Part shown: piece by piece, positions 1,568 through 47,727 of the stretch | Layout: every line of letters starts with the position of its first letter | Position numbering within the stretch: the stretch's first letter is position 1 | Virus record (IMG/VR): IMGVR_UViG_3300029337_000071 | Span: 11,801-75,800 of that record | From: a virus | DNA: 64,000 nucleotides | Strand: one strand, 5' to 3' | Position numbers and translations under genes: made by a program | The notes under the pieces: model-generated | What the model saw: the letters and a program-made list of their open reading frames with translations, nothing else | What the model was told of the DNA's origin: nothing | Database searches by the model: none

Positions 1568-1580
1568 TATGTTATTCTCC

Positions 1581-1904: not shown

Positions 1905-1946
1905 TTTTGCCTCCTTAATTTTCACAAGAAACTATCGCTTTTTAAC

Positions 1947-3951: not shown

Positions 3952-3976
3952 CTCCTTATCTGTGTATTTATACTTG

Positions 3977-9888: not shown

Positions 9889-9906
9889 ATATCACTCCAA
9901 AAGTTA

Positions 9907-11466: not shown

Positions 11467-11938
11467 CTACGCTTTCTTCAATTTCAGATAAACTTCTACG
11501 TTTATTTCTTCTCTTATAATTCATAATTGGCATATCAACTTCAACTTCTCTCGGTTTTTCAGACTCTTTCATTTTAAAGTCAGTCAAATTATTTTTAAGT
11601 ATTGCAGCGAAATACCGAATTTTTGCATATTCACTTACAAAATCCTTTTCAAGAACCCTTGTTATATACTCTTTATTCTCTGTTAGATATGCCAAAATAT
11701 GTTCATAAGAATATACATCTAATAAAAGATTTATCTCTTTGAACAAAGCGGAATTTAAAACTTTATATCCAAATATCTGATTAATACATTCGTATGTATT
11801 ATCTTTTACTTCCTTTTCGTGCAATACTTTCTGATATTCAGATTCATTGCAATAGTAGGTGTTTTTGCCACCTACTACCACTTTGAATGCTTCATTTCTA
11901 TCTACTTTAGTACCACACAGTCTGCATTTAACCAGCAT
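11459..11938 (-). CDS. zinc-ribbon hypothetical protein
   Basis: N-terminal CRLCGTK...YYCNESEY. Confidence 0.45.
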   Translation of the reverse strand: MLVKCRLCGTKVDRNEAFKVVVGGKNTYYCNESEYQKVLHEKEVKDNTYECINQIFGYKVLNSALFKEINLLLDVYSYEHILAYLTENKEYITRVLEKDFVSEYAKIRYFAAILKNNLTDFKMKESEKPREVEVDMPIMNYKRRNKRRSLSEIEESVGD

Positions 11939-11950
11939 GTGTTACTCCTT

Positions 11951-13096
11951 TTAGTTCATCATGTCGTAGATTCTCTTTAATCCGTCCTCATTGACATCAT
12001 TAAGCTTGCCATACTCAGCAATTACATTCTTAACAGATGCCTTTAGTTCTGCATCTTTGCACTCCTTGTACATCTTACGAATAACAGCATCTAAATCATC
12101 TGGATATGCAGAAGTTTCTGTTGTCTCTTCGATTGTATCCTCTACGGGTGTGTCGATATCATCAATATCGTCTTCCTCAATAGGATCAGGTTCAGTAACC
12201 TTTTCTTCCTTAACTGGCGTTGTCTTCTTAGGGGTAGACTTCTTACCGATAGTAGACTTTGACTTTTCCATACCTTCCTCGACTACTCTAATAAAATCAG
12301 CCGCCATATTAGGCTTATCAAATACCATATATTCTGGCACTGCACCATCTGCAAAACGTCCACCTGCATCAATAAGTGTTGTTCCTCTAAAATAAAGTTT
12401 ACGAACTGTATCTGTTGCATACTTCTTTACTTTATCCCCAACCTTCTTTTCTTCAAGGTCACGATCAATAACACCTGTAAGAGTTACATCAAAAATGTCA
12501 CCAAAAGCAGCTTCATAATCTGCTCCCATATTTGAAGATAACTGCATATATCCATCCTCTTCAAGACCACCCTTTTCCTTAATTGTCTTAAATTTAGTAT
12601 GTGCAATTACCCATACACCAAAACCTGCATCTTCAAGCTTTGTCATATAAGGCTTAATAATATCATTTGCAGAATACTTCTCTCCTGCTGTATATCCACC
12701 AAATGCAGCCTTAATTGACTTACACTTCTTGTTAGGATTTTCAACATTGCTTTGACGAATAGTTTCTGTATCTGCAATAAGTGCAAGCTCATCACCAGTA
12801 TCAAAAGCTACCATTTCAATATTGTGTTCCTTACCCTTCTCGTTAATTAACCAATCAGCTAATTCCTGTAAATCCTTATATGTCTTAACCTGAGTAGCAT
12901 TCAGATTATCAAGCATCTTATAACCTTTCTCATTTCCACAACCTACAAGCAAACCTCTTGATGGATCTCCATACTTTTCAAGAATTACATCTCTAAATAA
13001 TGTTGACTTGCCGAATTTCTTTGTACTCCTAAGATAGATTGATAAGTTCTTAATATCTGGTTTAATTACATTAATTGTTGGTTTCTGAAATGCCAT
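11951..13096 (-). CDS. AAA_24 (Sak4-like) recombination ATPase with acidic C-terminal extension
   Basis: Walker A STKKFGKSTL near the N-terminus and Walker B MVAFDTGDEL, typical of phage Sak4/AAA_24. Confidence 0.55.
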   Translation of the reverse strand: MAFQKPTINVIKPDIKNLSIYLRSTKKFGKSTLFRDVILEKYGDPSRGLLVGCGNEKGYKMLDNLNATQVKTYKDLQELADWLINEKGKEHNIEMVAFDTGDELALIADTETIRQSNVENPNKKCKSIKAAFGGYTAGEKYSANDIIKPYMTKLEDAGFGVWVIAHTKFKTIKEKGGLEEDGYMQLSSNMGADYEAAFGDIFDVTLTGVIDRDLEEKKVGDKVKKYATDTVRKLYFRGTTLIDAGGRFADGAVPEYMVFDKPNMAADFIRVVEEGMEKSKSTIGKKSTPKKTTPVKEEKVTEPDPIEEDDIDDIDTPVEDTIEETTETSAYPDDLDAVIRKMYKECKDAELKASVKNVIAEYGKLNDVNEDGLKRIYDMMN

Positions 13097-13141
13097 ATGT
13101 ATATCTCCTTTTAAATAATCATATTTTTATTTGTTATTATC

Positions 13142-13169
13142 GAGAGAGGGGCATTTGCCCTCATCTCTT
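13142..13169 (-). terminator. GC-rich hairpin (GAGGGCAAATGCCCCTC) immediately downstream of the 403-aa gene
   Basis: A GC stem-loop seen directly in an otherwise AT-rich region, with a T-rich flank. Confidence 0.35.
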
Positions 13170-14381
13170 TTAAAGTTCATCATCGTCATCTTCAAAGAGG
13201 TCTTCTGTTCCTTCTGGAAGCTCCTCTTCAAGTGGCTTAATTACCATATCATCTTCTGTATATACCGTGTCCTGTCTGCCCTTAGTGAATCCCTTTGCTG
13301 ACTTTAAGAACTGATACTCTCTAATTCTTTCACCATACACACTTCCACCAAGTTCTGCACGAATATCATCCATAGTAATAAGACCACACTCTAAGTCATC
13401 CTTCTGTTCATCAGTAAGCATGTCCTCTGTAATCTCTGTCTTTTGAGCACCATTAAGCATATTAACGACTGCACCATATTCCTTGAACGTATCATCATCA
13501 ACAATAAATTTATGCTTGATTGACTCTGCTCTCTTCTTAGCCTTTTCATCAGCATCATCTGAAGGAACTGGAATTGTAATTGTAACTGGCACAGCAATAT
13601 TACCCTTACGATTATTGTCATATTCCATCATGTATCCATTCACATAATACTTCCCCTTCTCTTCTACACTCATATCATCTAAACTCTCTGAGTTAAATAA
13701 GACATTAATTGTAGCTGTTGAACTCTCTTCTGCATCGTCTGCTGCGAGATAAATACGATTAGGAACATATGATTCATAAACTCTCTGATTTTTGTCTGAA
13801 TACTGATACTCGCCATTTCCACGAATGAAGAACTTCTTATCAGAATACTCTCCACTATCAATAACCTTCTTAATAAAGTCGATGAAATCCCATTCTGAAA
13901 TAAATTCATGTCTTCTTTTGTTACTCTTTTCAAGCTCCGCATTTACATCTGCTTCATTCTCAAGACCAATCTCTTTTAACTCTTCATCAGTAAGGTTTGT
14001 TCCTTCCTTAACCTTTTCAGCAGCCTTTTCAAGCTTATATCTACGACCTGGCTTTTCAAGATCAAAGATGAACTTCTTGAACTCTGCAACTTCTGCTAAT
14101 TTTGATGATGTAAGTCTCTCCTTAAATGGAATCTTTAATGATTCACCTTTAACCTTATTGCCATTTTCATCTACACCACTCTTAGAAAATGTGTACACAT
14201 CACCATGACCATCCGCAAAAGCACCTGATGTAACAGTCATCATATGTCTGTTATCTCCACAAGCTACATTAAACATTAACTGCTTGCGTACCCAACCAGA
14301 ATCAAACTGCTTTTCCTGATAAGGATGGAACTTTTCACTCTCCTTACCGATACTTAACTTTCCTGTCATTTCAAAATTCAT
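13170..14381 (-). CDS. hypothetical protein with acidic C-terminal tail (possible ssDNA-binding/annealing partner of Sak4)
   Basis: 403 aa; C-terminus EDLFEDDDDEL resembles SSB tails; located upstream of the Sak4-like gene. Confidence 0.4.
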   Translation of the reverse strand: MNFEMTGKLSIGKESEKFHPYQEKQFDSGWVRKQLMFNVACGDNRHMMTVTSGAFADGHGDVYTFSKSGVDENGNKVKGESLKIPFKERLTSSKLAEVAEFKKFIFDLEKPGRRYKLEKAAEKVKEGTNLTDEELKEIGLENEADVNAELEKSNKRRHEFISEWDFIDFIKKVIDSGEYSDKKFFIRGNGEYQYSDKNQRVYESYVPNRIYLAADDAEESSTATINVLFNSESLDDMSVEEKGKYYVNGYMMEYDNNRKGNIAVPVTITIPVPSDDADEKAKKRAESIKHKFIVDDDTFKEYGAVVNMLNGAQKTEITEDMLTDEQKDDLECGLITMDDIRAELGGSVYGERIREYQFLKSAKGFTKGRQDTVYTEDDMVIKPLEEELPEGTEDLFEDDDDEL

Positions 14382-19707: not shown

Positions 19708-20484
19708 CTAATTATTTATTCTCTGTTTTGCAATATCAAAATACTTTTCATCAAGCTCAATTCCGATAAACTTACGTTTATTATTCATACATGCTACACC
19801 TGTCGTTCCACTTCCCATACAAAAATCAAGCACAACATCTTCCTCATTTGAGAATGTTTTTACAAGATAATCCATTAAAAGCAATGGTTTTTGTGTTTCG
19901 TGAACTCTAATATCAATATCTGGACTATATGTTTTGGATTTAGCTGCCGTGATAGGACATTTATATGCTACTACGCTGATTGGATTTCTTGTTCCATCAT
20001 CAGGTTTTCTATTGCGTTTCATATTCCCATAAACATTATTTGTTTCACCATAAATACTCATTGTTTTTCTCTGTGTTAAAAACTCTTTTTCTTTAACTTC
20101 CCATTTCTGAGGATTGTATGTATATTTACCATTCTTAGCAAATACAATGATATTTTCGTGGACTTTCAAATGCTTCTGTTTATATTGCATACCACTCGCA
20201 GATTTATTTTTAAGCCAAATTATCTCTTCTCTAAAATTGTTGATATTGGAATTTATTAATTTTGAAGTAAATGGTTGGCTAGAAAATAGAACGATTGGCG
20301 AATCATCGTATGTGATTTTATAAAGCAAATCCCACATCTTATCAAATGGAATTACTTCATCCCAAGAACAAGCTGTTGTTCCGTATGGGATATCACATAT
20401 GACTGAATTTACTTTTACACCGTCATCAATTAGTTCTTGTAGTTTTACAAGACAATCTCCTTGCCATAATTCAATATTTTGCAT
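19708..20484 (-). CDS. DNA methyltransferase, beta class (N6-adenine or N4-cytosine; motif IV before motif I)
   Basis: VICDIPYGTT (DPPY-like motif IV) lies upstream of FCMGSGTTGVA (FxGxG motif I). Paralog of 36642..37400. Confidence 0.6.
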   Translation of the reverse strand: MQNIELWQGDCLVKLQELIDDGVKVNSVICDIPYGTTACSWDEVIPFDKMWDLLYKITYDDSPIVLFSSQPFTSKLINSNINNFREEIIWLKNKSASGMQYKQKHLKVHENIIVFAKNGKYTYNPQKWEVKEKEFLTQRKTMSIYGETNNVYGNMKRNRKPDDGTRNPISVVAYKCPITAAKSKTYSPDIDIRVHETQKPLLLMDYLVKTFSNEEDVVLDFCMGSGTTGVACMNNKRKFIGIELDEKYFDIAKQRINN

Positions 20485-22194: not shown

Positions 22195-23121
22195 TTATTC
22201 TCCAAAAATAATCTTCTTAGCCCAATTCATAGTTGTAGAGCCACACATCTTTCCAAAGAATTCACCAGCTTCAACAACCAATTCATTCTCTTCTTTCACA
22301 CAATCCTCAAAAATTCTCTTAGGTAAATTTTGTGCAACAATCTTCATATCTTGTGGTTCAATCTTTTCAGACAAAATGCCTTCATCAATCATTTTATGTA
22401 ATTCTTTCTGAACCCTATTCTTTGTAACAATTTGTTCTACTATATCAGAAGCTTTTGCTTTGGCAGCTAATTTCTGCGGATCTTCTACTTTCTGTTTGTG
22501 ATTGTCCTTCTTGATTTCACTGAATTGTGAGTTTACAATCTTTAAAACAAATGGGGTTCTTGAATTTGGATTGTTAAGTTCTGTCTGATTCTTAACAACA
22601 ATTCCTTCAGGAACATCAACTGCAATATCTGACTTGTACATAAACGACATACAATGCTCCCAAGAGATAAATTCTCCATCATAAAATGTCTGTACATATC
22701 TTAAATTCAACTCATCAGCGAGTCTCTTAACCTTTGACTGTGGTAGATAACACTCGTTTTCCTTATCATATACATCATAAAAATAAAATTTCTTATATGC
22801 ATCCTGAATATATTTAATGGTATGAGAAGTCAACCATTCACCAAAGAATACATAGTTTGGATATTTTGAAAATGGTTTGACTGCTAACATCTGTACCCAA
22901 TTCCAAAATCCATTTAATGTATTGTTGTAATCAAGAGTCTGTCTTCTTGAAAATGCAACTAATTTATTTGTTTCTATGTCATATGCAATAGCTGAATTGC
23001 TTCCATCTACCTTTTCCTGAATTACAATATGATCTCCTACATGAAAACCACCTGTGTTTGCTACTGTTAATTCCGTATCTTCTTTGATACGTGATATATC
23101 CATAAATTTCTTCTGATCCAA
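22195..23121 (-). CDS. ATP-dependent RNA ligase, Rnl2-like (T4 RnlB family)
   Basis: Nucleotidyltransferase motif I EKVDGSN (KxDGxN), motif III FFGEW, motif IV EGIVVKN, Lys-rich motif V. Confidence 0.6.
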   Translation of the reverse strand: MDQKKFMDISRIKEDTELTVANTGGFHVGDHIVIQEKVDGSNSAIAYDIETNKLVAFSRRQTLDYNNTLNGFWNWVQMLAVKPFSKYPNYVFFGEWLTSHTIKYIQDAYKKFYFYDVYDKENECYLPQSKVKRLADELNLRYVQTFYDGEFISWEHCMSFMYKSDIAVDVPEGIVVKNQTELNNPNSRTPFVLKIVNSQFSEIKKDNHKQKVEDPQKLAAKAKASDIVEQIVTKNRVQKELHKMIDEGILSEKIEPQDMKIVAQNLPKRIFEDCVKEENELVVEAGEFFGKMCGSTTMNWAKKIIFGE

Positions 23122-23186: not shown

Positions 23187-23888
23187 TTAATCTTCTAATT
23201 TGTTACCTTTAGCTTCATTACAAAGCTTACACATTGTTTGATAGTTACTAATATCATCAATACCACCTTTTGAACGTGGTAAAATATGATCTTTTGTCAT
23301 TAAAATTTCATTACCATTATCATCGACTGCATATAAATTCAGATGATAAGTTTTATCCTGTAAATGTCTTTCTTTAGCAAAATATTTGCCTTCAACTCCA
23401 CAAACTACACATTTACAGCCTTTTGTGAAAAATGTTTGGTATCTTTGACTATTACCTTTAATCAAATCACCATCAAAATCAACTTTTGCATTTCTTTTAT
23501 CTTTTTCAAACAAAACATCCTTTGTTTTTTCTCTAACTTCATCAATAGAGTAAATTTCTTTGCGAATCAAATCCTCATGTTTTAATTTTTGCTTTAGTTT
23601 TGATTTGCAAAATTGCTTAGTTAATAAAACATTACAAATATCTTCATTACTCAAAATATTCAACAAATCATCTACTGTTTTAATCTGGTTAGGAATATAA
23701 TCAGAAAGTAAATGTCTATTCCAAACAATCTTAAAAATTTCTGTATCCAAATTTGGTGATAATGGATTATTATTTTTAGGAAAACTCGTATTTAAGAAAT
23801 CTTCAATAGTTTCATATTTGTCTAATAACTCCTTATCATTAAAACGATAATGAAATTTAAGACCTTTAAAAAATTTCTTTTTGCTCAT
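23187..23888 (-). CDS. HNH endonuclease
   Basis: CKCVVCG...DHILPRSKGG...NYQTMCKLCNEAKGNK matches the HNH motif. Confidence 0.6.
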   Translation of the reverse strand: MSKKKFFKGLKFHYRFNDKELLDKYETIEDFLNTSFPKNNNPLSPNLDTEIFKIVWNRHLLSDYIPNQIKTVDDLLNILSNEDICNVLLTKQFCKSKLKQKLKHEDLIRKEIYSIDEVREKTKDVLFEKDKRNAKVDFDGDLIKGNSQRYQTFFTKGCKCVVCGVEGKYFAKERHLQDKTYHLNLYAVDDNGNEILMTKDHILPRSKGGIDDISNYQTMCKLCNEAKGNKLED

Positions 23889-26185: not shown

Positions 26186-27058
26186 TTAATAATTTGTGAT
26201 TAATACCTCGCAATCGGCACTCTTGTCCTTTTTCTGATAATTACAGTTGCTATAATCACCATTAAGATAATGAATGTTATATTTATTTTTCCATTCATCT
26301 AATAACGGATTATCATATTTAAGATTGTTGCTTAGTGCAAATCTGCCATGCTTGTCCACAACATCTAACACACTTAACAAATCTTTCTCGTCCTGTTCTG
26401 ACCAACCGCCATTTTCGTTATAAGTAGCAACTGAGTTGTAATATGGTGGATCAACATATATAAAATCGTCTGCAAAAAAATTACATTCTCTAAAATCTTT
26501 ATTCCAAAATTGAATGTCTTTTTTATGCATTTCATCAACAAAAGTCTTTAATTTTTCTTGTAGGGAAATATTATAATCACGTTTTCCATAAGGCATATTA
26601 AATTCACCTTTAGAATTGAATCGTATCTGATTACTAAACGAACACGTTATAAGTGTATAGAATTTAATCCAATCAGGATTAGAGTTGTATGCTTTTCTTA
26701 ATTCAAAGTATTTAGGCTTATTATATTCGCCAAGACCTTTACTTGACTCACATCCATATACTTCATAACCATTAAGATCAGACCTGCTTAATCCAAAATC
26801 AGATATGGTTTTTAAAATCATATTATGAATATACTCAGAATCATTATTGTAGAAATGTTCCAATAAATCTACCACCTGTTTACAAATATCATTGTAAACC
26901 AAATGCTTTACTTCAATGTTAATCCCAACATTAAATCCACCACCAAATAAATCTACAAATGTATTAATATCTTTTGGTATAAGGGGTATAATCTGTGGCA
27001 GTAACTTATACTTGCCTCCGACATAATTTAGAGGCGATTTGATATATGTATTTTTCAA
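26186..27058 (-). CDS. Dam-family (D12 class) N6-adenine DNA methyltransferase
   Basis: N-terminal NYVGGKYKLLPQI...VDLFGGGFNV (motifs X/I) and FIYVDPPYYNS (DPPY). Confidence 0.65.
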   Translation of the reverse strand: MKNTYIKSPLNYVGGKYKLLPQIIPLIPKDINTFVDLFGGGFNVGINIEVKHLVYNDICKQVVDLLEHFYNNDSEYIHNMILKTISDFGLSRSDLNGYEVYGCESSKGLGEYNKPKYFELRKAYNSNPDWIKFYTLITCSFSNQIRFNSKGEFNMPYGKRDYNISLQEKLKTFVDEMHKKDIQFWNKDFRECNFFADDFIYVDPPYYNSVATYNENGGWSEQDEKDLLSVLDVVDKHGRFALSNNLKYDNPLLDEWKNKYNIHYLNGDYSNCNYQKKDKSADCEVLITNY

Positions 27059-28122: not shown

Positions 28123-28857
28123 TTAGAAATTTGGATAGAATGAAGGCATAAGCTGAAGCTTGAACAAATTCTTTTCATGCATTGAATCAATCTTAGCTTT
28201 TACATCCTCATCATCAATCTCTCCTGTTCTGATATATCTATCAAGAGTGTCATAAGTGAATCCAAGGTTATCCTCGTCAGTCTTTCCACAAAGACCGTCA
28301 GTAGGTGTCTTATCTACTAACTCAGATGGAAGTCCTAATTCACGACCAATAGCCTTAACTTCCGAAACTGTAAGCTGTGATAGTGGTGCAAATGAACCAA
28401 ATCCGTCACCTCCGAAGGTCGCATAACCAACCCAATCCTCGGAAAGATTACAATTACAACTTGGGATGCCGTTATTACACTGAGCATAGAAATACAATTC
28501 TGTCATTCTAACTCTTGCAGGAGCATTTACTTTAGCCTGTTCTGTAACAACTACTCCATTTGATTCCATTTCAGAAATAATAGAATCAACGGTTGAACCA
28601 ATATTAATAATTTTGTATTCAATCCCAAGATGATTTGCACATAGAATACTACAGTCAATATCTGACTGTTCATGCTGCGGTAGCATAATAGCTTTTACTC
28701 TATCTTTTCCCAATGCCGCAACACATATAGCCGCAACTACAGACGAATCTTTCCCACCAGATAGTGCGATACAACAATTCTTATCTGGGAATTTTTCTTC
28801 AAACAAATTTTTAACCCATTCAATCACGTCATTTGTTACTGTTTTTGCATCAAACAT
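28123..28857 (-). CDS. nadE: NH3-dependent NAD+ synthetase
   Basis: PP-loop ALSGGKDSS; NAPARVRMTELY; GYATFGGDGFGSFAPL...KTPTDGL parallels E. coli NadE GNEKARERMKAQY / TKYGDGG...PTADL. Confidence 0.7.
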   Translation of the reverse strand: MFDAKTVTNDVIEWVKNLFEEKFPDKNCCIALSGGKDSSVVAAICVAALGKDRVKAIMLPQHEQSDIDCSILCANHLGIEYKIINIGSTVDSIISEMESNGVVVTEQAKVNAPARVRMTELYFYAQCNNGIPSCNCNLSEDWVGYATFGGDGFGSFAPLSQLTVSEVKAIGRELGLPSELVDKTPTDGLCGKTDEDNLGFTYDTLDRYIRTGEIDDEDVKAKIDSMHEKNLFKLQLMPSFYPNF

Positions 28858-28874
28858 TTATATATTCTCCTTCC

Positions 28875-29501
28875 TTACATTCGATTCATTACATCATAAA
28901 ATCGTATCAAATATTCATATACATTCTCAGGAACTAACTCTTTTACCTTTTCAAATTCGCCCTTTTCACACAAATTTCTAACCAAACTTGATGAAGTATG
29001 ATTTTCTGGTATTTGAATTTCTGTAAAATGATCCTTATATTCCATTAAATTAGCTTCTTCTAAAGCATCGTTAAGATTCTGCCCTTCTCTGACACAAGCA
29101 ACAAAATGATATTCTTCTACAAATGGTTTCCAGTTGTACCAACTTGTCAGAGTTTGAATATTGTCCATCCCTAAACAGATATAATATTCGTTGAATTTAT
29201 ACTCTTTTTCTACTTCATCTCTTAGCTGTGTTATTGTATTGTATGTTCTTTGTGGAAAGAAACTCGTTGTCTCTATATCTAATGCTTTCATGTTATACTT
29301 ATCACAATTTGGCATTGAATTTATTAATGATACTCGACAATAACCAGGGATTAATGTTCTTTTCTTTGCCACATAAGTATCATGAGCTGGAATAAAATAT
29401 ATCATGTCGGCATTAACTGCATTTTTAGCAGCCAATGCCATACCCACATGAGCATTTGTAATAGGATTAAAACTTCCTGGAATAAGCAAAATCTTATTCA
29501 T
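28875..29501 (-). CDS. nadD: nicotinate/nicotinamide mononucleotide adenylyltransferase
   Basis: IPGSFNPITNAHV (nucleotidyltransferase (H/T)xGH motif). Start at MNKILL has GGAGAA 7 nt upstream. 8-nt overlap with pncB. Confidence 0.6.
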   Translation of the reverse strand: MNKILLIPGSFNPITNAHVGMALAAKNAVNADMIYFIPAHDTYVAKKRTLIPGYCRVSLINSMPNCDKYNMKALDIETTSFFPQRTYNTITQLRDEVEKEYKFNEYYICLGMDNIQTLTSWYNWKPFVEEYHFVACVREGQNLNDALEEANLMEYKDHFTEIQIPENHTSSSLVRNLCEKGEFEKVKELVPENVYEYLIRFYDVMNRM

Positions 29502-30702
29502 GTGACATTCTCCAATCAATACATCTGTTCAGATAATCTACATATTCAGGATTCTTACACATACCTTTGCCTGTTACATCTGAAACCTTTGCAACATCCA
29601 TACCATTACATTTTGTTGTTTTCATAACAATATTAAGTGCAGGAACATCTGTATCATTGCTTAAATAAGTACCAATTCCAAAAGCAACATTAACTCTATC
29701 GTGGAAATATCTGAATAACTTGTCGGCTCTTTCAAAATCAAGACTATCGCTAAATAACAATGTCTTCGTCTTAGGATTGATGCCTAAAGACTCATAATGA
29801 GCAATCATCTTTGCGCCCCACTCATAAGGATCTCCACTATCATGTCTGACACCACTAAACAATGTTGCATAAGTCAACTGGAAATCTTTAAGGAAACAAT
29901 CTGTTGTAATTGTATCTGTAAGAGCAATACCATTTAATACTCCATACTCCTTAACCCATGCATCAAGAGCATACCAATTTGAATATGCAGGATTGTGCTT
30001 ATGATTCCCCTGTCCTGTACACATAATCCATTCATGAGCCATTGTTCCAACAGGTGTAAGATTATATTTCTTTGCAAGATACACGTTACTTGTACCTACA
30101 AATTTTGAAGGACTATGTAATGTATCATTTAAATGTGAAAACTTCTCAACAGCTAACTCCTGTGCTTCAGCAGAAAGTCTACGTCTCAGACCAAATTCTG
30201 AAAAAGTACCTGCATACCAATGACCACTTCTAAGATTTTCATACTTCTCATCAAGTCTCTTTTTAAAACTTTCAAATAATTCATCATAGTTATAAGCCAT
30301 TCTGAAATAAACTTCATTGACGATAGCAAGAGTTGGAATCTCATACATAGAAGTATTAAGCCATGTTCCTCTTGTCTCAATCGCCAATCCACACTCCGCA
30401 TCAGTTGTTATTTCAAAATCTTCATATCTTGGCTGCCATAATCTCAGAAAATCTACATATGAACCTTTCATCCACTTGATATTATCAATATAAGACAGTT
30501 CTTCTTCTGTAAATCTAAGACCACAATATAATTTAATCTGTCTCTTGATTTCCTCTACCATTTCGGGTGTAAAGAATACATCCTTGTTACGACATTTAAA
30601 ACTCCAAGTAGTCTTGTAATCGCTAAACTGATGATAAATCGCTTGTCCCATACTGAACTTATACGCATCTGTTTCTAACAAACTGTTAATGATCTGCTCC
30701 AT
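29494..30702 (-). CDS. pncB: nicotinate phosphoribosyltransferase
   Basis: Collinear similarity to E. coli PncB: LLETDAYKFSMGQAIYH; FVGTSNVYLAKKYNLTPVGTMAHEW; GIALTDTITTD; SGVRHDSGDPYEWGAKMIAHYESLGINPKTKTLLFSDSLD; AFGIGT; NIVMK..CNG..VAKVSD. Confidence 0.75.
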   Translation of the reverse strand: MEQIINSLLETDAYKFSMGQAIYHQFSDYKTTWSFKCRNKDVFFTPEMVEEIKRQIKLYCGLRFTEEELSYIDNIKWMKGSYVDFLRLWQPRYEDFEITTDAECGLAIETRGTWLNTSMYEIPTLAIVNEVYFRMAYNYDELFESFKKRLDEKYENLRSGHWYAGTFSEFGLRRRLSAEAQELAVEKFSHLNDTLHSPSKFVGTSNVYLAKKYNLTPVGTMAHEWIMCTGQGNHKHNPAYSNWYALDAWVKEYGVLNGIALTDTITTDCFLKDFQLTYATLFSGVRHDSGDPYEWGAKMIAHYESLGINPKTKTLLFSDSLDFERADKLFRYFHDRVNVAFGIGTYLSNDTDVPALNIVMKTTKCNGMDVAKVSDVTGKGMCKNPEYVDYLNRCIDWRMSHE

Positions 30703-30704
30703 AA

Positions 30705-31271
30705 TTATTTTCCTTCTTTCTTAATTAAATTGAATATTGTCCCAATATCATATTCTCTCTTTTCACATTCATAAAATAAATTTATGTATTTATCAATGAA
30801 CGCTTTATCATTTGGGTGCATAGCAATCGGTTTACTCTTCTTTGATTTCCACCATTGCAACTCTTTTTCAAAATTAAAAGCTTTCCCATGATATGCTCTG
30901 CCAGCACCAAGATAATCACATAACATTTCTTTTTTATACTTCATTGGCATTTCAATCGGATTCCCACCATTATCAAAATTATCTTGCCAATATTCGTAAT
31001 GGTGTTTATTTCTTCCCTTATGATGCATCCAAGCTGCTGACCAACCATTTACCTTCTTACAAGCATCAATCGGACTTGAAGTGCCTTGATAATACTTAAC
31101 ACTTTCCCAAAACTCTGTCGGAGAAAACTTTGATAAATCATGTACTAATCCTTGAAATGGGATTCCTGCTTTACAACAGTAATAGAATACCCAATACTTA
31201 TGAACGCATATCTTTTTGAAATGTTTAAAGATATTTGATATATAATTACTGTACTTCATATTATTCTCCAA
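30705..31271 (-). CDS. hypothetical protein, possibly an HD-domain hydrolase, embedded in the NAD operon
   Basis: H...(20)...HDLSKF...HHKG...HH pattern, weakly reminiscent of the HD motif. Overlaps both neighbours. Confidence 0.3.
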   Translation of the reverse strand: MENNMKYSNYISNIFKHFKKICVHKYWVFYYCCKAGIPFQGLVHDLSKFSPTEFWESVKYYQGTSSPIDACKKVNGWSAAWMHHKGRNKHHYEYWQDNFDNGGNPIEMPMKYKKEMLCDYLGAGRAYHGKAFNFEKELQWWKSKKSKPIAMHPNDKAFIDKYINLFYECEKREYDIGTIFNLIKKEGK

Positions 31272-31773
31272 TCACATTAATCTGACACATCTTCATTGTC
31301 TCTAATGCAGCCTTATGTGTCTCAGGTGTTACACCTGCACAGCAACTTGCATCTACTGTAATATCAATGTTAGGGTAATTTGCTCTAATCATAAGTACAT
31401 TTGACACTACACAAATATCTGTGCAAAGACCACAAACTTCTACTTCTGTAAAATCAAAATCATCCCAATGTGTCCATCCGAAAGTTGTCTTATCAATAAC
31501 TACGTCATTGTCAATATCAAAATCTAACTTATCTGATATCTGCCATCCGATTGTATTTTTTACACAATGAACAACAGGAAGATGCTTTCCTTCATATGTT
31601 TCTAAATAATTATTTGGGTGTGTATCTCTTGTAAAAATTACACTATTACTATTTTCTCTATACTTCTTGATTTTCTTTGCCACATTAGGTACAATACTCT
31701 GTGCTTCCTTTGTGCCGAGTGAGCCATCAATAAAATCATTCTGCATATCAATTACAATTAGTGTTTTACTCAT
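31261..31773 (-). CDS. pncA: nicotinamidase (isochorismatase family)
   Basis: LIVIDMQNDFIDG...; Cys-containing catalytic region GLCTDICV. Start at MSKTLIV has AAGGAAGGG upstream. Confidence 0.6.
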   Translation of the reverse strand: MSKTLIVIDMQNDFIDGSLGTKEAQSIVPNVAKKIKKYRENSNSVIFTRDTHPNNYLETYEGKHLPVVHCVKNTIGWQISDKLDFDIDNDVVIDKTTFGWTHWDDFDFTEVEVCGLCTDICVVSNVLMIRANYPNIDITVDASCCAGVTPETHKAALETMKMCQINVIGE

Positions 31774-31862
31774 AATATCCCTTCCTTTCTTTACTATATA
31801 TTGTGTTTTACAATTCATTCAACCACTATATGTAGCTTCAAACTTGCCATGAAATGTCGGTT

Positions 31863-34498: not shown

Positions 34499-35251
34499 TC
34501 ATTCTCTTATCTCAAACAACTTTTCTACAGCTTTCTCACCTGTGACTCTATCTGACTTCTGTAACACTTTACGTTCTTTCTGCCAAATACACTTAAAATC
34601 ATCAGGCATATTATATTCACTTACTAACACTATATTATTCTCTGAAAGTTTACGAAGAAAATCGTAGAATTCGTCATAGTCGATTGACTGTTTAGAATAC
34701 TGTTTTGTATTACGATATGGTGGATCGAAATAGAAGAGGCAGTTCTTATAATCTGCAAAGTCTTTATAATCACAACATCTAAATTCAATATCATTCAAAT
34801 CAGGAATTTGTGTCCTAAAGTTCTTCAGTCTCTCATTGTAAATACTTCTACCACCCTTAGAATCTCTGCCATATCCACCATCAAAATATCTGCCACCATA
34901 AGATGCACAATATCCAATAAGTGCTATATACTCTTTTGAATATTTATGTGTTCCAAGTTTCCTATCTTCTCTCACATCGGCATAATGTTCAAATGTGCAT
35001 ACATCTGGTGCAATAGATAAATCATTATCAGACTGAGCATATTTCAATAAAGCAATTAGTTCTTCGTTGATGTCAGCTCCTATCTTCTTATCACATTTAA
35101 TCTTATCAATTAAATTTGCTCCACCCACCATAGGTTCTATGTAAGTTGTAATATTGTTATCATCAATATACTTCTGAATAATTGGCACTAAAAATTTTGC
35201 CAATCTGTTTTTACTTCCTTGATATACCATTCCATTACCAGAAAGTGACAT
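34499..35251 (-). CDS. Dam-family (D12 class) N6-adenine DNA methyltransferase
   Basis: MVYQGSKNRLAKFL...EPMVGGANL and FYFDPPYRNT. Paralog of 40388..41113. The start codon lies inside the 42-bp conserved element. Confidence 0.6.
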   Translation of the reverse strand: MSLSGNGMVYQGSKNRLAKFLVPIIQKYIDDNNITTYIEPMVGGANLIDKIKCDKKIGADINEELIALLKYAQSDNDLSIAPDVCTFEHYADVREDRKLGTHKYSKEYIALIGYCASYGGRYFDGGYGRDSKGGRSIYNERLKNFRTQIPDLNDIEFRCCDYKDFADYKNCLFYFDPPYRNTKQYSKQSIDYDEFYDFLRKLSENNIVLVSEYNMPDDFKCIWQKERKVLQKSDRVTGEKAVEKLFEIRE

Positions 35252-35296: not shown

Positions 35297-36121
35297 CTAC
35301 TTCACATATAAACTTTCATACACAATACTATCATTTGATTTACCAATAGTACGCTTAAAGCTGCTATTACCACTAAGTAAATATTCGTGTCGTGTATATA
35401 CATCTTCTGGAACATTCCATGTATTGTCTATATCCCCACTCTTACCATCGAATGATAAAGCATACTTGCAAGGTAAACTCCTCAAATAATTCCAAAACTT
35501 CTCATAATCAATTGTTCCATAATACATACCCTTTGTATTGGCATAAGGTGGATCAAGATACAAGAAGTCGTTATCTGTTGGGTTAATATCTTCATAAGAA
35601 CAACTGATAAACTCTACATTATTTTTCTTCAGCATATGACTCCACTCAAAAATAATCTTTTCAAAAGTTTCAGGAATAATACCATTTCTTGTTACATGAA
35701 AAGAATTATTAAATTCACCATCACGATTATATCTTGGCATACCATTAGTAGTAGTTCTCATAATGAACATAAAATCTAATGGATTATGTTCTTTATTGTA
35801 TCGTTCTCTTACACTTGCAAAATATTCTTTTTTACGTTGTTTGTCATCATCAACATTTAACTCATTCCAGAGTTTCTTATAATAAAAATAAACTTCTAAT
35901 GGATTATTGATAATCTCTTTCCATAAATCAATTAACCCGCTATTCAAATCACTACATACATAATGATTAACTTTGATGTCGCTATCTAATAATCTCCTTA
36001 ATACAGACGCTCCACCACAAAACGGTTCATAATATGTATCAATTTCTTTTGGAAAGAATGTCAGTATCTTTTCTGCCTGACTTCTTTTACTTCCACTCCA
36101 TTTAATTACTGGTTCGTACAT
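35297..36121 (-). CDS. Dam-family (D12 class) N6-adenine DNA methyltransferase
   Basis: KWSGSKRSQAEKIL...EPFCGGASV and LYLDPPYANT. Confidence 0.6.
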   Translation of the reverse strand: MYEPVIKWSGSKRSQAEKILTFFPKEIDTYYEPFCGGASVLRRLLDSDIKVNHYVCSDLNSGLIDLWKEIINNPLEVYFYYKKLWNELNVDDDKQRKKEYFASVRERYNKEHNPLDFMFIMRTTTNGMPRYNRDGEFNNSFHVTRNGIIPETFEKIIFEWSHMLKKNNVEFISCSYEDINPTDNDFLYLDPPYANTKGMYYGTIDYEKFWNYLRSLPCKYALSFDGKSGDIDNTWNVPEDVYTRHEYLLSGNSSFKRTIGKSNDSIVYESLYVK

Positions 36122-36641: not shown

Positions 36642-37400
36642 CTATGTTGCACTCATTAATAAATCCTGATGAGCATATTCAGCTACTCTCTTACTTCCAA
36701 CCTCAAAAATATCCTTATCTTTCTCAAAACATATGTAATTTCTACCTGTATTTAAAGCTGCGACTGCCGTTGTACAACTTCCTGCACATGAATCAAGAAC
36801 TAAATCTCCTGGGTTGGTGTATGTCTTGATAAAATATTCACATGCTTCAACAGGTTTTTGACACTGATGCAAGCTACTTTTCTGAGTATCCCACTTAAAC
36901 TGCAGAACATCTCTTGGATATCTTTGTGTACTACCACCACCTGAAATGCCAGTCTTTGTAGCACCATAACAATTACCATCTGTTGTATGTTTTGTATAAG
37001 AATGGACAGGTGTATGTCCTTCTGTCATTTGTGGATTGTAAGTAGGGAGTTTCTTATAGAAAATCAAGACATTTTCATGAGCCTTCATCGGCATTTTCTT
37101 TGCGTTTAGATGACCAGTTGCTTTGGTCTTTTCAATAACCCATTCATAACGATATAGCTTTTCATTACTACAAGCGAGTCTCTTATCAAATGGTGACTGT
37201 GCCCATAATGCAATACAGCCATTATCTTTGATAATTCTCTCGTATTGTTCCCATAACGACTCGAATGGAATTAGCACATCCCATGAATTCTGGGTTGTTG
37301 AAAACGGCAGATCCGTGAAGATAAAATCAATTGATTTATCATCAATCTTTTTCATACCTTCAAGACAATCTTCGTTGTATATTTTGTTAATCTCTAACAT
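36642..37400 (-). CDS. DNA methyltransferase, beta class (N6A/N4C)
   Basis: IFTDLPFSTTQNSWD (motif IV) precedes DSCAGSCTTAVA (motif I). Paralog of 19708..20484. Confidence 0.6.
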   Translation of the reverse strand: MLEINKIYNEDCLEGMKKIDDKSIDFIFTDLPFSTTQNSWDVLIPFESLWEQYERIIKDNGCIALWAQSPFDKRLACSNEKLYRYEWVIEKTKATGHLNAKKMPMKAHENVLIFYKKLPTYNPQMTEGHTPVHSYTKHTTDGNCYGATKTGISGGGSTQRYPRDVLQFKWDTQKSSLHQCQKPVEACEYFIKTYTNPGDLVLDSCAGSCTTAVAALNTGRNYICFEKDKDIFEVGSKRVAEYAHQDLLMSAT

Positions 37401-40387: not shown

Positions 40388-41113
40388 TTACTTAGAACTT
40401 TTATTTTTATACACAAACAGCTTTTCTCTTCGAAAATCCTTAATGCTATTACACTTTCTATTGCTGTCAAATGTAATCTTAACTTGTTTCTCCCAAATGC
40501 AATCAAAGTCATCTGGCATTGAATATTCACTTATAATGACAATATTGTCTTTAGACATTTCTCTACACCATTGATAAAATTGTTCATATGGAAATTCACC
40601 TGTTTTATATTTTGTTGTATTTTTATACGGTGGATCGCAATATATTACATACCCATGTAAGTTAGAATAATCTAAAAATGAAGCTGTTCTAAAATGGATA
40701 TCTTTAAGATTTGGAGCTTGCTTCATACATGATTTGTAAGAATAAATATCTCCACGATGTTTAGCATCATCACGCTTTGCATAACCCCCAAACCACTTTG
40801 CTCCAAAACTAAGTTCATATCCTATATACCCTGTTATAAAATCAGAATACTTGTCAGGATTATTTTTTACATCAATATAAAATTCTTTCGATACTTCTTT
40901 TGGTGGTTCAATTCCTTGCTGCAAACCAATAAGTACAGAGATTACATATTTATCAATATCGCTTCCTATCTTATTGTCGCATTCAATTTTATCAATAATA
41001 TTTGCACCACCTACGAATGGTTCTAAATAACCATTGCATCCATTGTCTATGTAATTCTGTATAATCGGTACAATTTGTTTTGATAACCGATTTTTGCTTC
41101 CCATGTAAATCAT
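40388..41113 (-). CDS. Dam-family (D12 class) N6-adenine DNA methyltransferase
   Basis: MIYMGSKNRLSKQIV...EPFVGGANI and IYCDPPYKNT. Paralog of 34499..35251. Confidence 0.6.
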   Translation of the reverse strand: MIYMGSKNRLSKQIVPIIQNYIDNGCNGYLEPFVGGANIIDKIECDNKIGSDIDKYVISVLIGLQQGIEPPKEVSKEFYIDVKNNPDKYSDFITGYIGYELSFGAKWFGGYAKRDDAKHRGDIYSYKSCMKQAPNLKDIHFRTASFLDYSNLHGYVIYCDPPYKNTTKYKTGEFPYEQFYQWCREMSKDNIVIISEYSMPDDFDCIWEKQVKITFDSNRKCNSIKDFRREKLFVYKNKSSK

Positions 41114-41186: not shown

Positions 41187-42155
41187 TTAATATTCCCAAT
41201 CATCATTTCTAACCTGGAATACATCGCCACACTCTTCAATATCTGGATAATTATATGTGGCAACATTCATAGCATATTTATCTATTTCATACGCTTTATA
41301 TATAATATTTGTAAATCCCATTTTTTCTAAACAATATCTACCAGTAGCAATACCATCATATAAGCTTAGAACTTCAATAGGATAATCTCGTGGAACATTC
41401 TTTAATCCCTGATTTAAAATATGAATAATTACCTCTGACGTCCATCCATTACCAATACATTTATAACGTTGCGTTTCAGGAACACCATTACATAATGTAT
41501 AATTATCAGGTAACGTCTGTAATCTTTCTGCTTCTAAGGGATTTAATTTTCTTACTTCTCCATTGATAAGATACAATCCAGTTTTTGCACCTCTTCCACC
41601 ACCATTGGCAGACAAAGTGCATGATTTACCATTTATGGAATATACTCTTTCACCTTGTCCACCTTTACCAATAGTGCCAATTCTAACAAGTTTATTGTTA
41701 TCCTTAGTATCATCTCTGTTATTAAATTTGACCTCATTTATTAAGTTTTCTTTGTGGAATTCAACATCAAGAATATCTTTCACTCTTATACCTTTATCTA
41801 TAATGTTTTTTAGATCAATATTGAGATTAGTAGCATAAATACGATGTCGAGTTTGTGCTGATAATAATGCACTGTTGATATGTAATAGATTAACATTTAA
41901 TCGTTTTTCGATTTCCTTTTGAATTTCTTTTGATATACTTTCGTTGTTTTCATATAAAAATATATCTGGTTGCCATTTTTCTTTCGCAATTAAATAATTT
42001 TTAAATAATTCCCATCCTGTACCTTCACAAGTGGTTTCTCTTCTTTCGGGTGATTGTGAGATTGACCAAAATGTACAAGGCGAACCACCTATTAACAAAC
42101 GTAATGGTCGTCCATTAAGCTCACAATAATTATTTTTTTCTTTATTCTCTGTCAA
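41187..42155 (-). CDS. C5-cytosine DNA methyltransferase with permuted motif order (IV-VI-VIII ... X-I-II); TTG start without SD
   Basis: Motifs in order: GGSPCTFWS (IV, PC), LYENNES (VI, ENV), QTRHR (VIII), IGNGW (X), then C-terminal LSLYDGIATG (I) and AYEIDKYAMNVATYNYP (II). Confidence 0.5.
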   Translation of the reverse strand: MTENKEKNNYCELNGRPLRLLIGGSPCTFWSISQSPERRETTCEGTGWELFKNYLIAKEKWQPDIFLYENNESISKEIQKEIEKRLNVNLLHINSALLSAQTRHRIYATNLNIDLKNIIDKGIRVKDILDVEFHKENLINEVKFNNRDDTKDNNKLVRIGTIGKGGQGERVYSINGKSCTLSANGGGRGAKTGLYLINGEVRKLNPLEAERLQTLPDNYTLCNGVPETQRYKCIGNGWTSEVIIHILNQGLKNVPRDYPIEVLSLYDGIATGRYCLEKMGFTNIIYKAYEIDKYAMNVATYNYPDIEECGDVFQVRNDDWEY

Positions 42156-45552: not shown

Positions 45553-47664
45553 TTAAAACTTAATCTTCATTACACGCTCTGTTGCGCCCTTAACCTTAAC
45601 AACTAAATCTGCTCTCTTTGTCATAGAGAATCCAATTCCTGAAAGCTGATCATCAGTATCTTCTACATGACACTTAGCACCTAAAGCCTCAAATACTCTC
45701 TTGTGCTTTTCAAGGTCACTCTTTAAGAACTCATTGTAATAGCCATTAGGACTTTCGTTGTTTACACAATCCTTCAGGAAGAAGAATAAATGTCTATGAC
45801 CAATTCCATCCTGTTCATCAAAATAATTTGGGCTATAACTGATTACTGATACAGGAACAAACTGATTCGTTTTGATATTCCACTTTTCAATAGGTGTACT
45901 ATCATTCTCTGCCATTTCAAGAATACTAAACTCGCCATTTTTTAATTCTAATTTTGCAAGAGTAATCCATTCCTTGTGCTGTAATGGTTCTCTTCTTACA
46001 AATCTATAAACATTACCGCCAAATGCAATTTCTGCTTTAAAGCCACCTGTTGTCGGATTTCTAAAATTCCAATTATGGATTTTAAAAGTGTATACACCCT
46101 CTTTCAATTTATCAATTGAAGGAAATGTTGTGTTTTCAACTGGAACATATCCAATAGGAGCAGGAGCGGTATAATCTACATCCTGAACTCCACCAGAAGC
46201 ATAATGTCTTCTATGATTCCATCCAACTCTTTCATCATTCCCATAATTATCATGAATTTCTTTCCCATTCTTGATAACAACATTCTGATTTGAACCAGGC
46301 ATAAACACATGTAAATCCATAAGAGAAGCATTTCTCATTCCATCATAATTCCAACTATGTGAAAATCTAAGAACCCCATCCGTTCTTCCACCAGCGGCTC
46401 TAACCTTTTCTGTAATCTCTGAGTCTGTAATATTTCCTGAATAAGCCCAAGATAATCCATTATTCCACTTAAACATTGTTTTAGCATCTGGATTAACTGG
46501 TGCAATCATAGATACAAAGTTCTTCTCATGCTTATTCTCTACAAATGCTTCAATCTCCTTTGCAGTTGGAAGTACCTTATCAATGAAATCCTGTGCTGAA
46601 ATCTCCTCAACCTTAGAAAACTTCTTAGGACTTACAGCAACATCTTTTTCCATCTGACCAAAAATATCATCTGCGCCAACCATTCTTCTTGCAGCACTTT
46701 TATTTGAGAACAGTACATTATTTACAGTAATATCATTCAGATTAGCAAATCTTCTCTGTAATGAATCCATATATCCAAGTTCTGTAATGGTCTTCTTTGC
46801 ATCCTCAAGCATTTTCTTTGTAAAAATAGCCTTTGGACGCTTATAATTGCTTGGAGCGACAATCTGCTCATACTTCTTAACTGCTGTGTCAAGATCCATA
46901 TCCTCACTTACATTAATAAGAAGTGTTCCAATGGAATGATTTCTAATTCTACCGATAGCCATACCTGCTGTTACCGACTTCTCCCAAGCATATAAATCCT
47001 TTTCAGTATCAGAAGTCAGCTTATCATATTCCTTCTTATACTTCTTGAACTCTGTGAGTACGCCTTTCCACTCTTCGCCCTTGTAAAGTGTATTTGAATT
47101 GATAAGTTCAAGAATTGTATCAAGTGCTTCCATAGTAATCTCATCGAGAGAACGCTTAAATACATTTCTTGTATCTCTGAACTGTCCTTTAACTTCCTCG
47201 TTAGAACGACTACTTCTATTTACGAACTTGCTTGGAAGCTCTAAGAAGAAATGATCCCACTGATGAGACTTTCCATTGATTTCCTCAAAGTTAAAATCTG
47301 TACCAATTTTAGGGAACTTAGTTGTATAAATATCTGTAACTGTATGAGCTTTTACGAAAGCATCAAGTGCATCACATACTGGCTGATATGTTGTATCACC
47401 AAGATTCAGTTCCCAAATCGTATGAATCTGGTTATCCTTGATAGTGACAGCAGAACCAATATTCTTAATAAACTGTCTACAACAACTACAATCATGTTCT
47501 CTACGCTCTCTGAAAATCTCATTTGTACCAGCAGGGAAGCTATCAAGATATGTATTCCATAATTCATTCTTATCTACATTTACTTCAAATAAATGTGTTG
47601 CCTCTTTCTGCATTTCATCGAAGTGCTTCTGTAAAGCCTTCTTAAACATCATAAATCCATCCAT
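45553..47664 (-). CDS. large hypothetical protein (about 703 aa), function unknown
   Basis: Long ORF. Start set at MDGFMMFKK, which has AGAAGAGG 8 nt upstream. Contains HDCSCCRQF; no family recognised. Confidence 0.5.
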   Translation of the reverse strand: MDGFMMFKKALQKHFDEMQKEATHLFEVNVDKNELWNTYLDSFPAGTNEIFRERREHDCSCCRQFIKNIGSAVTIKDNQIHTIWELNLGDTTYQPVCDALDAFVKAHTVTDIYTTKFPKIGTDFNFEEINGKSHQWDHFFLELPSKFVNRSSRSNEEVKGQFRDTRNVFKRSLDEITMEALDTILELINSNTLYKGEEWKGVLTEFKKYKKEYDKLTSDTEKDLYAWEKSVTAGMAIGRIRNHSIGTLLINVSEDMDLDTAVKKYEQIVAPSNYKRPKAIFTKKMLEDAKKTITELGYMDSLQRRFANLNDITVNNVLFSNKSAARRMVGADDIFGQMEKDVAVSPKKFSKVEEISAQDFIDKVLPTAKEIEAFVENKHEKNFVSMIAPVNPDAKTMFKWNNGLSWAYSGNITDSEITEKVRAAGGRTDGVLRFSHSWNYDGMRNASLMDLHVFMPGSNQNVVIKNGKEIHDNYGNDERVGWNHRRHYASGGVQDVDYTAPAPIGYVPVENTTFPSIDKLKEGVYTFKIHNWNFRNPTTGGFKAEIAFGGNVYRFVRREPLQHKEWITLAKLELKNGEFSILEMAENDSTPIEKWNIKTNQFVPVSVISYSPNYFDEQDGIGHRHLFFFLKDCVNNESPNGYYNEFLKSDLEKHKRVFEALGAKCHVEDTDDQLSGIGFSMTKRADLVVKVKGATERVMKIKF

Positions 47665-47727
47665 ATTTTGTACCTCTTCTTTCTTATATTTATTTTTGTT
47701 AATTGTTTCTACCGTTATATTCTCCAT

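Follow-up and report, generated by a model that had tools for sequence, protein, structure and literature searches.

A conserved gene cluster in large gut phages predicted to encode a four-step route from nicotinamide to NAD+, with a recurrent DUF5662 partner

Can a phage carry a complete enzymatic route from nicotinamide to nicotinamide adenine dinucleotide (NAD+), and, if so, what would such a route be for? The question is raised by a 64,000-nucleotide stretch of viral DNA (positions 11,801 to 75,800 of IMG/VR record IMGVR_UViG_3300029337_000071, hereafter the window), in which five adjacent genes encode a PncA-like nicotinamidase, a protein of the DUF5662 family, the nicotinate phosphoribosyltransferase PncB, a NadD-like nicotinate mononucleotide (NaMN) adenylyltransferase and the NAD+ synthetase NadE. 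Bacterial immunity against phages commonly ends in NAD+ depletion, and none of the three proven phage NAD+ pathways takes the deamidated route. Judged from profile matches and active-site residues, it is highly probable that this cluster specifies a functional nicotinamide-to-NAD+ pathway on a phage.

The first-pass annotation of this DNA had assigned the four enzyme identities. Profile matches and intact catalytic residues in all four bear these assignments out, and alignment finds the catalytic and metal residues present rather than lost. Homologues for the residue comparisons were gathered from 80 viral loci. The PncA-like protein matches the Isochorismatase family PF00857 over the full-length domain (5.8e-30, residues 19-182; residue numbers for this protein refer to the long open reading frame (ORF) starting at 31818), and among solved structures its closest relative is 1ILW, the pyrazinamidase/nicotinamidase of P. 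horikoshii (1.3e-16). In the alignment with 1ILW, D24 and C136 fall on D10 and C133, the triad Asp and Cys of that enzyme, and D65, H67 and H84 fall on its metal ligands D52, H54 and H71. K110 aligns to the strand-end lysine of 3S2S and 5ZN8, with an indel offset relative to 1ILW. The triad D24/K110/C136 is invariant in 60 distinct phage homologues of 40-100% identity, as is the metal site D65/H67/H84.

The first gene could instead encode an isochorismatase-family hydrolase acting on another substrate, in which case the phage route would accept nicotinate only and reduce to the three-step Preiss-Handler pathway, as in jumbo phages. The isochorismatase family is functionally diverse, the PHROG family of the PncA-like protein carries no assigned function, and the NCBIfam pncA equivalog NF008623 covers just the N-terminal 56 residues (16-71), at 44.8 bits against a cutoff of 174. 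The nicotinamidase-typical D-x-H...H metal site and the Asp/Lys/Cys triad are nevertheless present and invariant, nicotinamidases are the best solved relatives, and the adjacency of pncA and pncB is preserved over three PncB clades and several gene orders. A different substrate thus appears quite unlikely, and the assignment as a nicotinamidase is retained here.

PncB exceeds the cutoff of the TIGR01514 nicotinate phosphoribosyltransferase model (406.2 bits against 269.55), scores 480 bits with NF003704, carries both domains of the family (PF17767 and PF04095) and matches PDB entry 1YIR at 1.3e-94. It also weakly matches the PHROG of phage nicotinamide phosphoribosyltransferases (1.6e-19). Its H223, in the motif GTMAHEW, aligns with the same motif of 1YIR and 3OS4 and does not vary among 66 phage homologues; in enzymes of this family the conserved histidine serves in ATP coupling as a phosphohistidine. 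The top PDB matches of the NadD-like protein are all bacterial NadD enzymes, aligned over the full length (2H29, 2.3e-11). Of the nucleotidyltransferase motifs (H/T)xGH and ISxTxxR, the second has a putative counterpart in a C-terminal S170-SSLVR175, and both this sequence and the N-terminal TNAH motif considered below are conserved in 46 phage homologues. NadE is a single-domain protein of 244 amino acids (aa) with no glutaminase domain. It matches PF02540 (1.2e-43), TIGR00552 (144.3 bits against a cutoff of 63.65), the PHROG family phrog_11189, named 'NAD synthetase' (1.4e-50), and PDB entry 2E18 (6.4e-33), and its SGGxDS loop (S33-G-G-K-D-S38) is invariant in 64 homologues of 41-91% identity. 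The lowest identity at which the phage homologues still share the invariant residues is 40% for PncA, 41% for NadE, 62% for NadD and 83% for PncB. Active-site residues that stay invariant across divergent homologues fit purifying selection on activity.

The five ORFs are arranged head to tail on the minus strand and, taken as longest ORFs, span 28123-31818. They had been described as five tightly overlapping genes over that span. Gene starts were set here from the positions of ribosome-binding sites and from independent gene calls on metagenomic contigs carrying an identical PncB, which give products of 170, 184, 402, 208 and 244 aa. The resulting genes are pncA (31261..31773; 170 aa from the ATG at 31773, the longest ORF reaching 31818), the DUF5662 gene (30705..31259; 184 aa), pncB (29494..30702; 402 aa), the nadD-like gene (28875..29501; 208 aa from the ATG at 29501) and nadE, encoding an NH3-dependent NAD+ synthetase (28123..28857; 244 aa). 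A start later than that of the longest ORF is likely for three of them (pncA, DUF5662 and nadD), and the pncA start at 31773 is backed by the ribosome-binding site AGGAAGGG as well as by the 170-aa gene calls. The packing of the five ORFs and their positions therefore stand, but the boundary at the pncA end moves to 31773, and only one true overlap remains, of 8 nucleotides (nt), where the nadD start lies over the pncB stop; the other junctions are spacers of 1, 2 and 17 nt. The genes are tightly packed and probably translationally coupled.

An intergenic spacer of 89 nt (31774..31862, minus strand) lies upstream of pncA and includes a weak sigma-70-like match, TTGAAT-18-TATAGT, at 31822-31793. 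A promoter and terminator scan of the cluster region gave results no better than shuffled sequence, with 36 promoter-like matches observed against 33.8 expected. Because the match frequency does not exceed that of shuffled sequence, this promoter is a candidate only. An Rfam scan returned a tRNA as its sole match and therefore no NAD-related riboswitch.

The phage setting of the cluster, also proposed in the first-pass annotation, is supported by several independent features of the DNA. A PolIII-alpha encoded in the window shares about 36% identity with its counterparts in Clostridium phages phiCD211 and c-st, and the window has PHROG replication genes and encodes RecJ-like, primase, DnaB-like and Sak4-like proteins. 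At least 161 IMG/VR viral contigs carry a PncB of the window type, and these related contigs are mostly 90-215 kb long (many 130-215 kb), with a few up to 302 kb. One ENA contig is 100% identical to window positions 19494-40702, and on a sibling contig, which resembles window positions 924-5231 at 99.5-99.8% identity along about 3.9 kb, tape-measure and holin genes lie beside that region. Against GenBank phages, the DNA gave nothing beyond short, weak matches to human faecal phage scaffolds that carry no annotation.

Such genes could also come from a salvage operon on a bacterial chromosome or plasmid, and two features point that way: no capsid, portal, terminase or other virion gene was identified within the 64-kb window, and the window contains integrase-like and transposase genes. 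Set against them are the viral contigs sharing its PncB, the nearest relatives of its PolIII-alpha, and the tape-measure and holin genes on the sibling contig. The layout is also phage-like: each of the 103 non-nested ORFs that reach 60 aa or more lies on the minus strand, and together they cover 87% of the sequence; many are small orphans, and homing endonucleases are present. No plasmid match to the window DNA was found, and the best DUF5662 protein in reference genomes is only 59% identical. A non-phage origin is thus very improbable, and the window represents the early/replication part of the genome of a large gut phage of the Clostridia type. Nearly all DUF5662 homologues in reference genomes come from gut Clostridia, which suggests this group as the host.

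Gene order was sampled in the closest 80 viral loci of IMG/VR. The order pncA-DUF5662-pncB-nadD-nadE is the same in 62 of them; seven lack DUF5662 (pncA-pncB-nadD-nadE), three read pncA-pncB-nadE and five read pncB-nadE-Nudix. At these last loci (L075:8036-8644, and L076-L079) the Nudix gene follows pncB-nadE, and pncA, DUF5662 and nadD are absent; the best matches of the Nudix protein are ADP-sugar/ADP-ribose pyrophosphatases, all below curated cutoffs. The variants keep the logic of the pathway. Identity across the close loci ranges over 83-99% for PncB, 41-91% for NadE and 40-100% for PncA, and this difference in spread shows that modules have been exchanged in a mosaic evolution. In distant relatives the adenylyltransferase slot holds a NadM-type nicotinamide mononucleotide adenylyltransferase (NMNAT), not NadD. 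This non-orthologous replacement at a fixed slot argues for selection on the pathway.

Other relatives show the cluster interrupted or combined with further NAD+ genes. In some of them, cluster genes are separated by inserted homing endonucleases and a radical-SAM-like gene. In one relative with a 99% identical PncB (L001), three interruptions occur (4192-4851, 5398-6000 and 7877-8680): a 219-aa CxxxCxxC radical-SAM-like protein with a weak NrdG-type match follows pncA and precedes DUF5662, an ORF for a GIY-YIG-like endonuclease continues in frame into pncB, and a 267-aa endonuclease-like ORF separates nadD from nadE. A 225-kb relative (L164) has the cluster pncA-DUF5662-pncB-NMNAT-nadE and, about 4 kb upstream of it (L164:1077-2898), a NadR-like gene (CTP_transf_like plus AAA_28) with a PnuC-type nicotinamide mononucleotide (NMN) transporter, so that one phage would hold two NAD+ routes. 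The pair pncB-nadE adjoins PnuC and NadR in the 735-kb megaphage LR756501, and pncB lies near an annotated ADP-ribose pyrophosphatase in Agrobacterium phage Atu_ph07. PncB matches labelled 'Acinetobacter phage MD-2021a' (CAKLQH020000008.1 and CAKLQF020000012.1) were dropped from the comparison, as these are bacterial chromosome contigs with serB, psd and phoBR as neighbours.

How would the cluster work? We propose that it acts as a phage-borne deamidating nicotinamide salvage route, transcribed within the early region of a large gut-Clostridia phage, with its steps following the established biochemistry of the four enzyme families. PncA would convert nicotinamide to nicotinate and NH3, and PncB would combine nicotinate with phosphoribosyl pyrophosphate (PRPP) to give NaMN, with ATP coupling through its conserved histidine. 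The NadD-like enzyme would then adenylate NaMN to nicotinate adenine dinucleotide (NaAD), which the NH3-dependent NadE would convert to NAD+. Since PncA would release one NH3 per nicotinamide and NadE would use one per NAD+, the route may be nitrogen-balanced. Co-expressed in infection, the enzymes would raise or restore the NAD+ pool and would be most useful when NAD+ cleavage builds up nicotinamide. From the gene content and its conservation we infer catalytic activity, co-transcription and a benefit of the cluster; that it forms a functional salvage pathway sustaining or restoring NAD+ in infection, leaving aside whether for defence or for provisioning, appears likely.

The nature of the benefit is less clear-cut. 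Nicotinamide, the entry compound, is the product of TIR, SIR2 and similar NADases, and this entry, together with a setting among methyltransferases, an RNA ligase and sibling Lar-like and PARG-type genes, fits counter-defence. Resistance to NADase-type defence as the main selective benefit can be put forward tentatively, at a confidence that stops just short of evenly balanced. The cluster may alternatively be an auxiliary metabolic module that provides NAD+ for the NAD+-consuming enzymes with which the phage itself replicates, notably a DNA ligase dependent on NAD+. Its hosts are often auxotrophic for niacin, and the module would serve them by boosting the salvage of gut nicotinamide and niacin to sustain replication. 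Two sibling contigs (L303 and L304), 98.6-100% identical to the low-coordinate 11 kb of the window (924-11851), encode such a ligase, LigA (646 aa, 11751-13691), beginning about 1.1 kb beyond the end of the similarity and accompanied by ThyX, guanylate kinase, the anaerobic ribonucleotide reductase NrdD with its activase, and a dUTPase-family gene. This gene content makes provisioning at least as plausible as counter-defence. Jumbo phages, moreover, pair NAD+ synthesis with NAD+-consuming genes and complement host pathways (Li et al. 2024, PMC11662467). LigA was not found within the 64-kb window itself, however, which diverges from the siblings below about 924, and the PncA entry step, the methyltransferase-rich island and the PnuC/NadR pair in the 225-kb relative, which is of the NARP3 type described below, fit counter-defence at least as well. 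Provisioning as the explanation is a serious possibility while remaining short of probable. The two benefits are not mutually exclusive but compatible, and the computed evidence separates neither.

Several observations weigh against the view that the cluster is a working four-step pathway with a role in counter-defence. At the level of the proteins, the NadD-like enzyme falls just below the TIGR00482 cutoff despite a full-length alignment (109.1 bits against 112.45), and it has T15-N-A-H18, a PPAT-like N-terminal motif, in place of HxGH; the missed pncA cutoff belongs here too. At the level of the genome, besides the lack of virion genes in the window, the variants without nadD or without pncA indicate that the set is not indivisible, and LigA in the sibling genomes favours provisioning. 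The deamidated route is dearer in ATP than either NARP1 or NARP2, two phage pathways introduced below. Hosts nearly always own NadD and NadE, so the phage copies may just boost flux. No published test of phage PncA/PncB/NadD/NadE sets, whether of activity, expression or infection, was found.

Is such a route new to phages? Experimentally validated phage NAD+ pathways are NARP1 (Adps/Namat) and NARP2 (Nampt/Nmnat) (10.1101/2024.02.11.579819) and NARP3 (PnuC/NadR) (PMC13464706). The first-pass annotation had held that the phage pathways described so far use different enzymes, which is correct for these three, and that a four-step route would be a distinct anti-defence strategy, which as a claim of novelty goes too far. 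In Li et al. 2024 (Microbiome, PMC11662467), 174 phages termed 'NAD-jumbo phages' were reported to have a full salvage or Preiss-Handler pathway; the examples include a pncB-nadD-nadE cluster in Kuafu_71, and phage pncA and NAD+-consuming genes such as ligases are mentioned. Phage Preiss-Handler clusters and phage pncA were thus already known computationally, and the claim of novelty was therefore overstated. The terms nicotinate, nicotinic acid, PncA and NadE do not occur in the Osterman preprint (10.1101/2024.02.11.579819), and two Aravind-lab surveys cover only the amidated salvage set.

The NAD-jumbo phages likewise carry clustered pncB, nadD and nadE in gut metagenomes and are known only by annotation. 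The present cluster adds the pncA entry step and a conserved DUF5662 gene, and its relatives, mostly of 130-215 kb, are often below the 200-kb jumbo threshold and resemble phages of Clostridia more than those of Bacteroidota. That paper (PMC11662467) describes neither the recurrent linkage of DUF5662 nor the replacement of NadD by NadM in its slot. What is new is that a nicotinamidase entry step is conserved within the cluster, that such clusters are prevalent in 130-300 kb Clostridia-type gut phages, that NadM replaces NadD in its slot and, above all, that DUF5662 is a recurrent partner.

Comparison with the validated pathways places the cluster more precisely. NARP2 also starts from nicotinamide, the product of NADase effectors, and its two enzymes are likewise a phosphoribosyltransferase of type II and an adenylyltransferase of the HIGH family, but it is a validated pathway of two amidated steps via NMN, whereas the present cluster would take four steps via nicotinate, NaMN and NaAD, requiring a nicotinamidase and an NAD+ synthetase and more ATP. 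NARP1 rebuilds NAD+ from ADP-ribose (ADPR) and nicotinamide with Adps and Namat, neither of which is among the five genes. NARP3 is a NAD+-restoring phage module too, and the NadR-like gene and PnuC pair about 4 kb from the five-slot cluster in the 225-kb relative has the NARP3 architecture; NARP3 itself uses nicotinamide riboside, a different route, and PnuC and NadR were not found in the window by tblastn. None of the NARP1, NARP2 or NARP3 families is represented among the five cluster genes, and no search was aimed at Adps or Namat outside the cluster. Bacterial PncA-PncB/NadD-NadE salvage, as in enterobacteria and Bacillus, employs the same four families in the same reaction order, including a TIGR01514-type PncB with the ATP-coupling histidine and a single-domain NH3-dependent NadE. 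In bacteria, however, the four genes are usually dispersed, with nadD and nadE as essential housekeeping genes, while the phage has one packed cluster with an extra gene and a NadD bearing TNAH.

After NARP1-3 the cluster is unsurprising to a specialist, yet it is a ready candidate for a fourth pathway. If it does restore the NAD+ pool of cells attacked by NADases, phages would have a fourth route, one that is common in large gut Clostridia phages and composed of salvage enzymes ordinary in bacteria, and this would bear on phage persistence in the human gut. Should it not, the cluster would still be a conserved viral module of vitamin B3 metabolism in the gut.

What, then, does the second gene of the cluster contribute? 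The first-pass annotation had supposed that this HD-like gene may deal with a nucleotide by-product. Its product matches PF18907, DUF5662, at 3.1e-32. This family comprises 2,842 representatives at 50% identity, is not mentioned in the literature covered by a full-text search, and is given a name by no source examined; the sole cultured phage that encodes it is Moorella phage MTATph1, whose annotation calls the product hypothetical. H20, H40-D41, H79/H80, H86/H87 and D115 are invariant in 51 close sequences. Across 28 diverse members the core H, HD, H, H does not vary, and conservation of the last Asp is 90% or higher. This H..HD..HH..HH..D pattern fits a putative bi- or trinuclear HD-type site. 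The structural model is confident and all-helical. Its closest folds are the HD-GYP/HD-domain phosphohydrolases 9rbz, 3tm8, 4mcw and PgpH 4s1b, with which the family is alike in its H..HD..H..H..D invariant residues, and the fold similarity to HD-GYP is weak. Pfam HD families gave no match to the 28 members even at E values up to 10, the PDB gave none by sequence or by profile, and a BFVD fold search had no significant match. DUF5662 is a probable divergent HD-superfamily metal-dependent hydrolase. The domain is found fused to a NadD-like adenylyltransferase (one case) and, in P0207, P0246, P0186 and P0198, to three other kinds of partner: 2-thiouracil desulfurase in two proteins, the HAD domain known from 'Swiss Army Knife' RNA-repair proteins, and a domain resembling DMP19. 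These partners point to nucleotide chemistry.

Whether this protein belongs to the NAD+ pathway depends on how often the genes travel together. Inside phage pncA/pncB clusters, DUF5662 is represented by three separate subclades and stands in at least seven different orders of genes, most often as the gene immediately upstream of pncB. These subclades are interleaved with non-associated members in a neighbour-joining tree that is rough and carries no support values. The sampling behind this linkage is biased, some of the loci having been found via PncB. A second PncB clade, 48-50% identical to the window PncB, has DUF5662 in the cluster at 16 of 19 loci, directly upstream of pncB at about 11 of the 16. 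Its gene orders include NMNAT-nadE-DUF5662-pncB-pncA, pncA-DUF5662-pncB, DUF5662-pncB-pncA, pncA-NMNAT-DUF5662-pncB-nadE and DUF5662-NMNAT-PnuC-pncB. In another relative, 1.8 kb separates the gene from one for an NMNAT. DUF5662 is absent from all 24 loci of a third PncB clade (pncA-pncB-nadE, with or without nadD) and is therefore not required for the pathway. The pncB-nadE-Nudix variant had raised the idea that a Nudix protein substitutes for DUF5662; this was rejected, as there was no Nudix match at the 24 loci of the third clade.

DUF5662 may simply be an unrelated passenger, an independent phage accessory gene with no role in NAD+ metabolism. NAD genes lie within 6 kb at only two of 80 genomic DUF5662 loci and within 7 kb at only five of 80 distant viral ones. 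In other large phages the gene sits amid unrelated neighbours (RtcB, radical SAM and MetK in one; an ATP ligase, PhoH, FolD and gyrase in another), and it is undetectable in 12 of the 80 close relatives and in the whole third PncB clade. Its fusion partners are varied as well, with 2-thiouracil desulfurase, RNA-repair HAD and DMP19 domains among them. Against a passenger stand its presence in pncA/pncB clusters across three well-separated subclades and at least seven gene orders, its position directly upstream of pncB in most DUF5662-positive loci of the second clade, the relative close to NMNAT, and the natural fusion with a NadD-like domain. The passenger hypothesis keeps substantial weight and is plausible without being probable. 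We read DUF5662 as an accessory hydrolase that on several occasions joined, or stayed with, the PncA/PncB steps; it would be a metal-dependent hydrolase working alongside them.

There is precedent for such an accessory. An extended NARP1 has an accessory phosphatase, Adpp, with a macro domain (10.64898/2026.01.28.702374), and RyDEP is a RyR-domain glycosidase (PMC13232231). Both are extra hydrolases acting on ADPR-type molecules in phage NAD+ operons, from which DUF5662 differs in being HD-like. A bolder proposal is that the cluster constitutes a fourth, five-component phage NAD+ reconstitution system, in which DUF5662 would be a new HD-type metal-dependent hydrolase dedicated to NAD+ conflict, possibly destroying ADPR-derived immune signals or turning ADPR or its derivatives into ribose-5-phosphate for PRPP and PncB, while PncA, PncB, NadD and NadE rebuild NAD+ from the released nicotinamide. 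We consider this unlikely as it stands. If it were true, the stand-alone DUF5662 proteins of other large phages would form a widespread, unrecognised family of counter-defence enzymes. The DUF5662-pncA/pncB link and the NadD fusion nonetheless provide the first functional lead for a large uncharacterised family, and with it concrete substrates.

The genes around the cluster include further candidates for counter-defence. Seven DNA methyltransferases (19708-20484, 26186-27058, 34499-35251, 35297-36121, 36642-37400, 40388-41113 and 41187-42155), four of them D12-class N6-adenine, two N6/N4 and one C5 enzymes, have no recognisable restriction partner, and these orphan genes surrounding the NAD cluster look like an anti-restriction island. 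A Rnl2-like RNA ligase gene (22195-23121) adjoining an HNH endonuclease gene (23187-23888) is a candidate tRNA-repair counter-defence gene. In a sibling genome with the same methyltransferase island, a microbial PARG-type (PF10021) ADP-ribose glycohydrolase gene occurs with a Lar-like restriction-alleviation gene (L299:671-1459); the PARG gene is missing from the window, unlike in this sibling. A stand-alone AAA_28 P-loop protein of 200 aa (2098-2700) was not counted as part of the NAD system: it matches the ribosylnicotinamide-kinase region of NadR at E 4.5e-5, far below the cutoff, and has no match to the NadR-like protein of the 225-kb relative, so that it might be another NAD-related gene or an unrelated one.

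The base composition of the window is about 31% GC over all 64 kb, with a uniformly negative GC skew (-0.19 to -0.45). Its remaining genes include one for a 724-aa protein (45553-47727) that matches phrog_1735, a family without assigned function, at 849 bits and has no Pfam match, one for a Bax1-inhibitor-family membrane protein (947-1567) found in 677 contig-index blocks, and others for a SPFH/Band-7 protein (50134-51003), a sigma-70 region-2 protein with a weak match (55652-56308) and an AP2 nuclease. A tRNA-Gln(TTG) (50015-50087), a transposase-like gene (51423-52811) and an integrase-like gene (58495-59511) hint at a temperate or mobile-element-rich genome.

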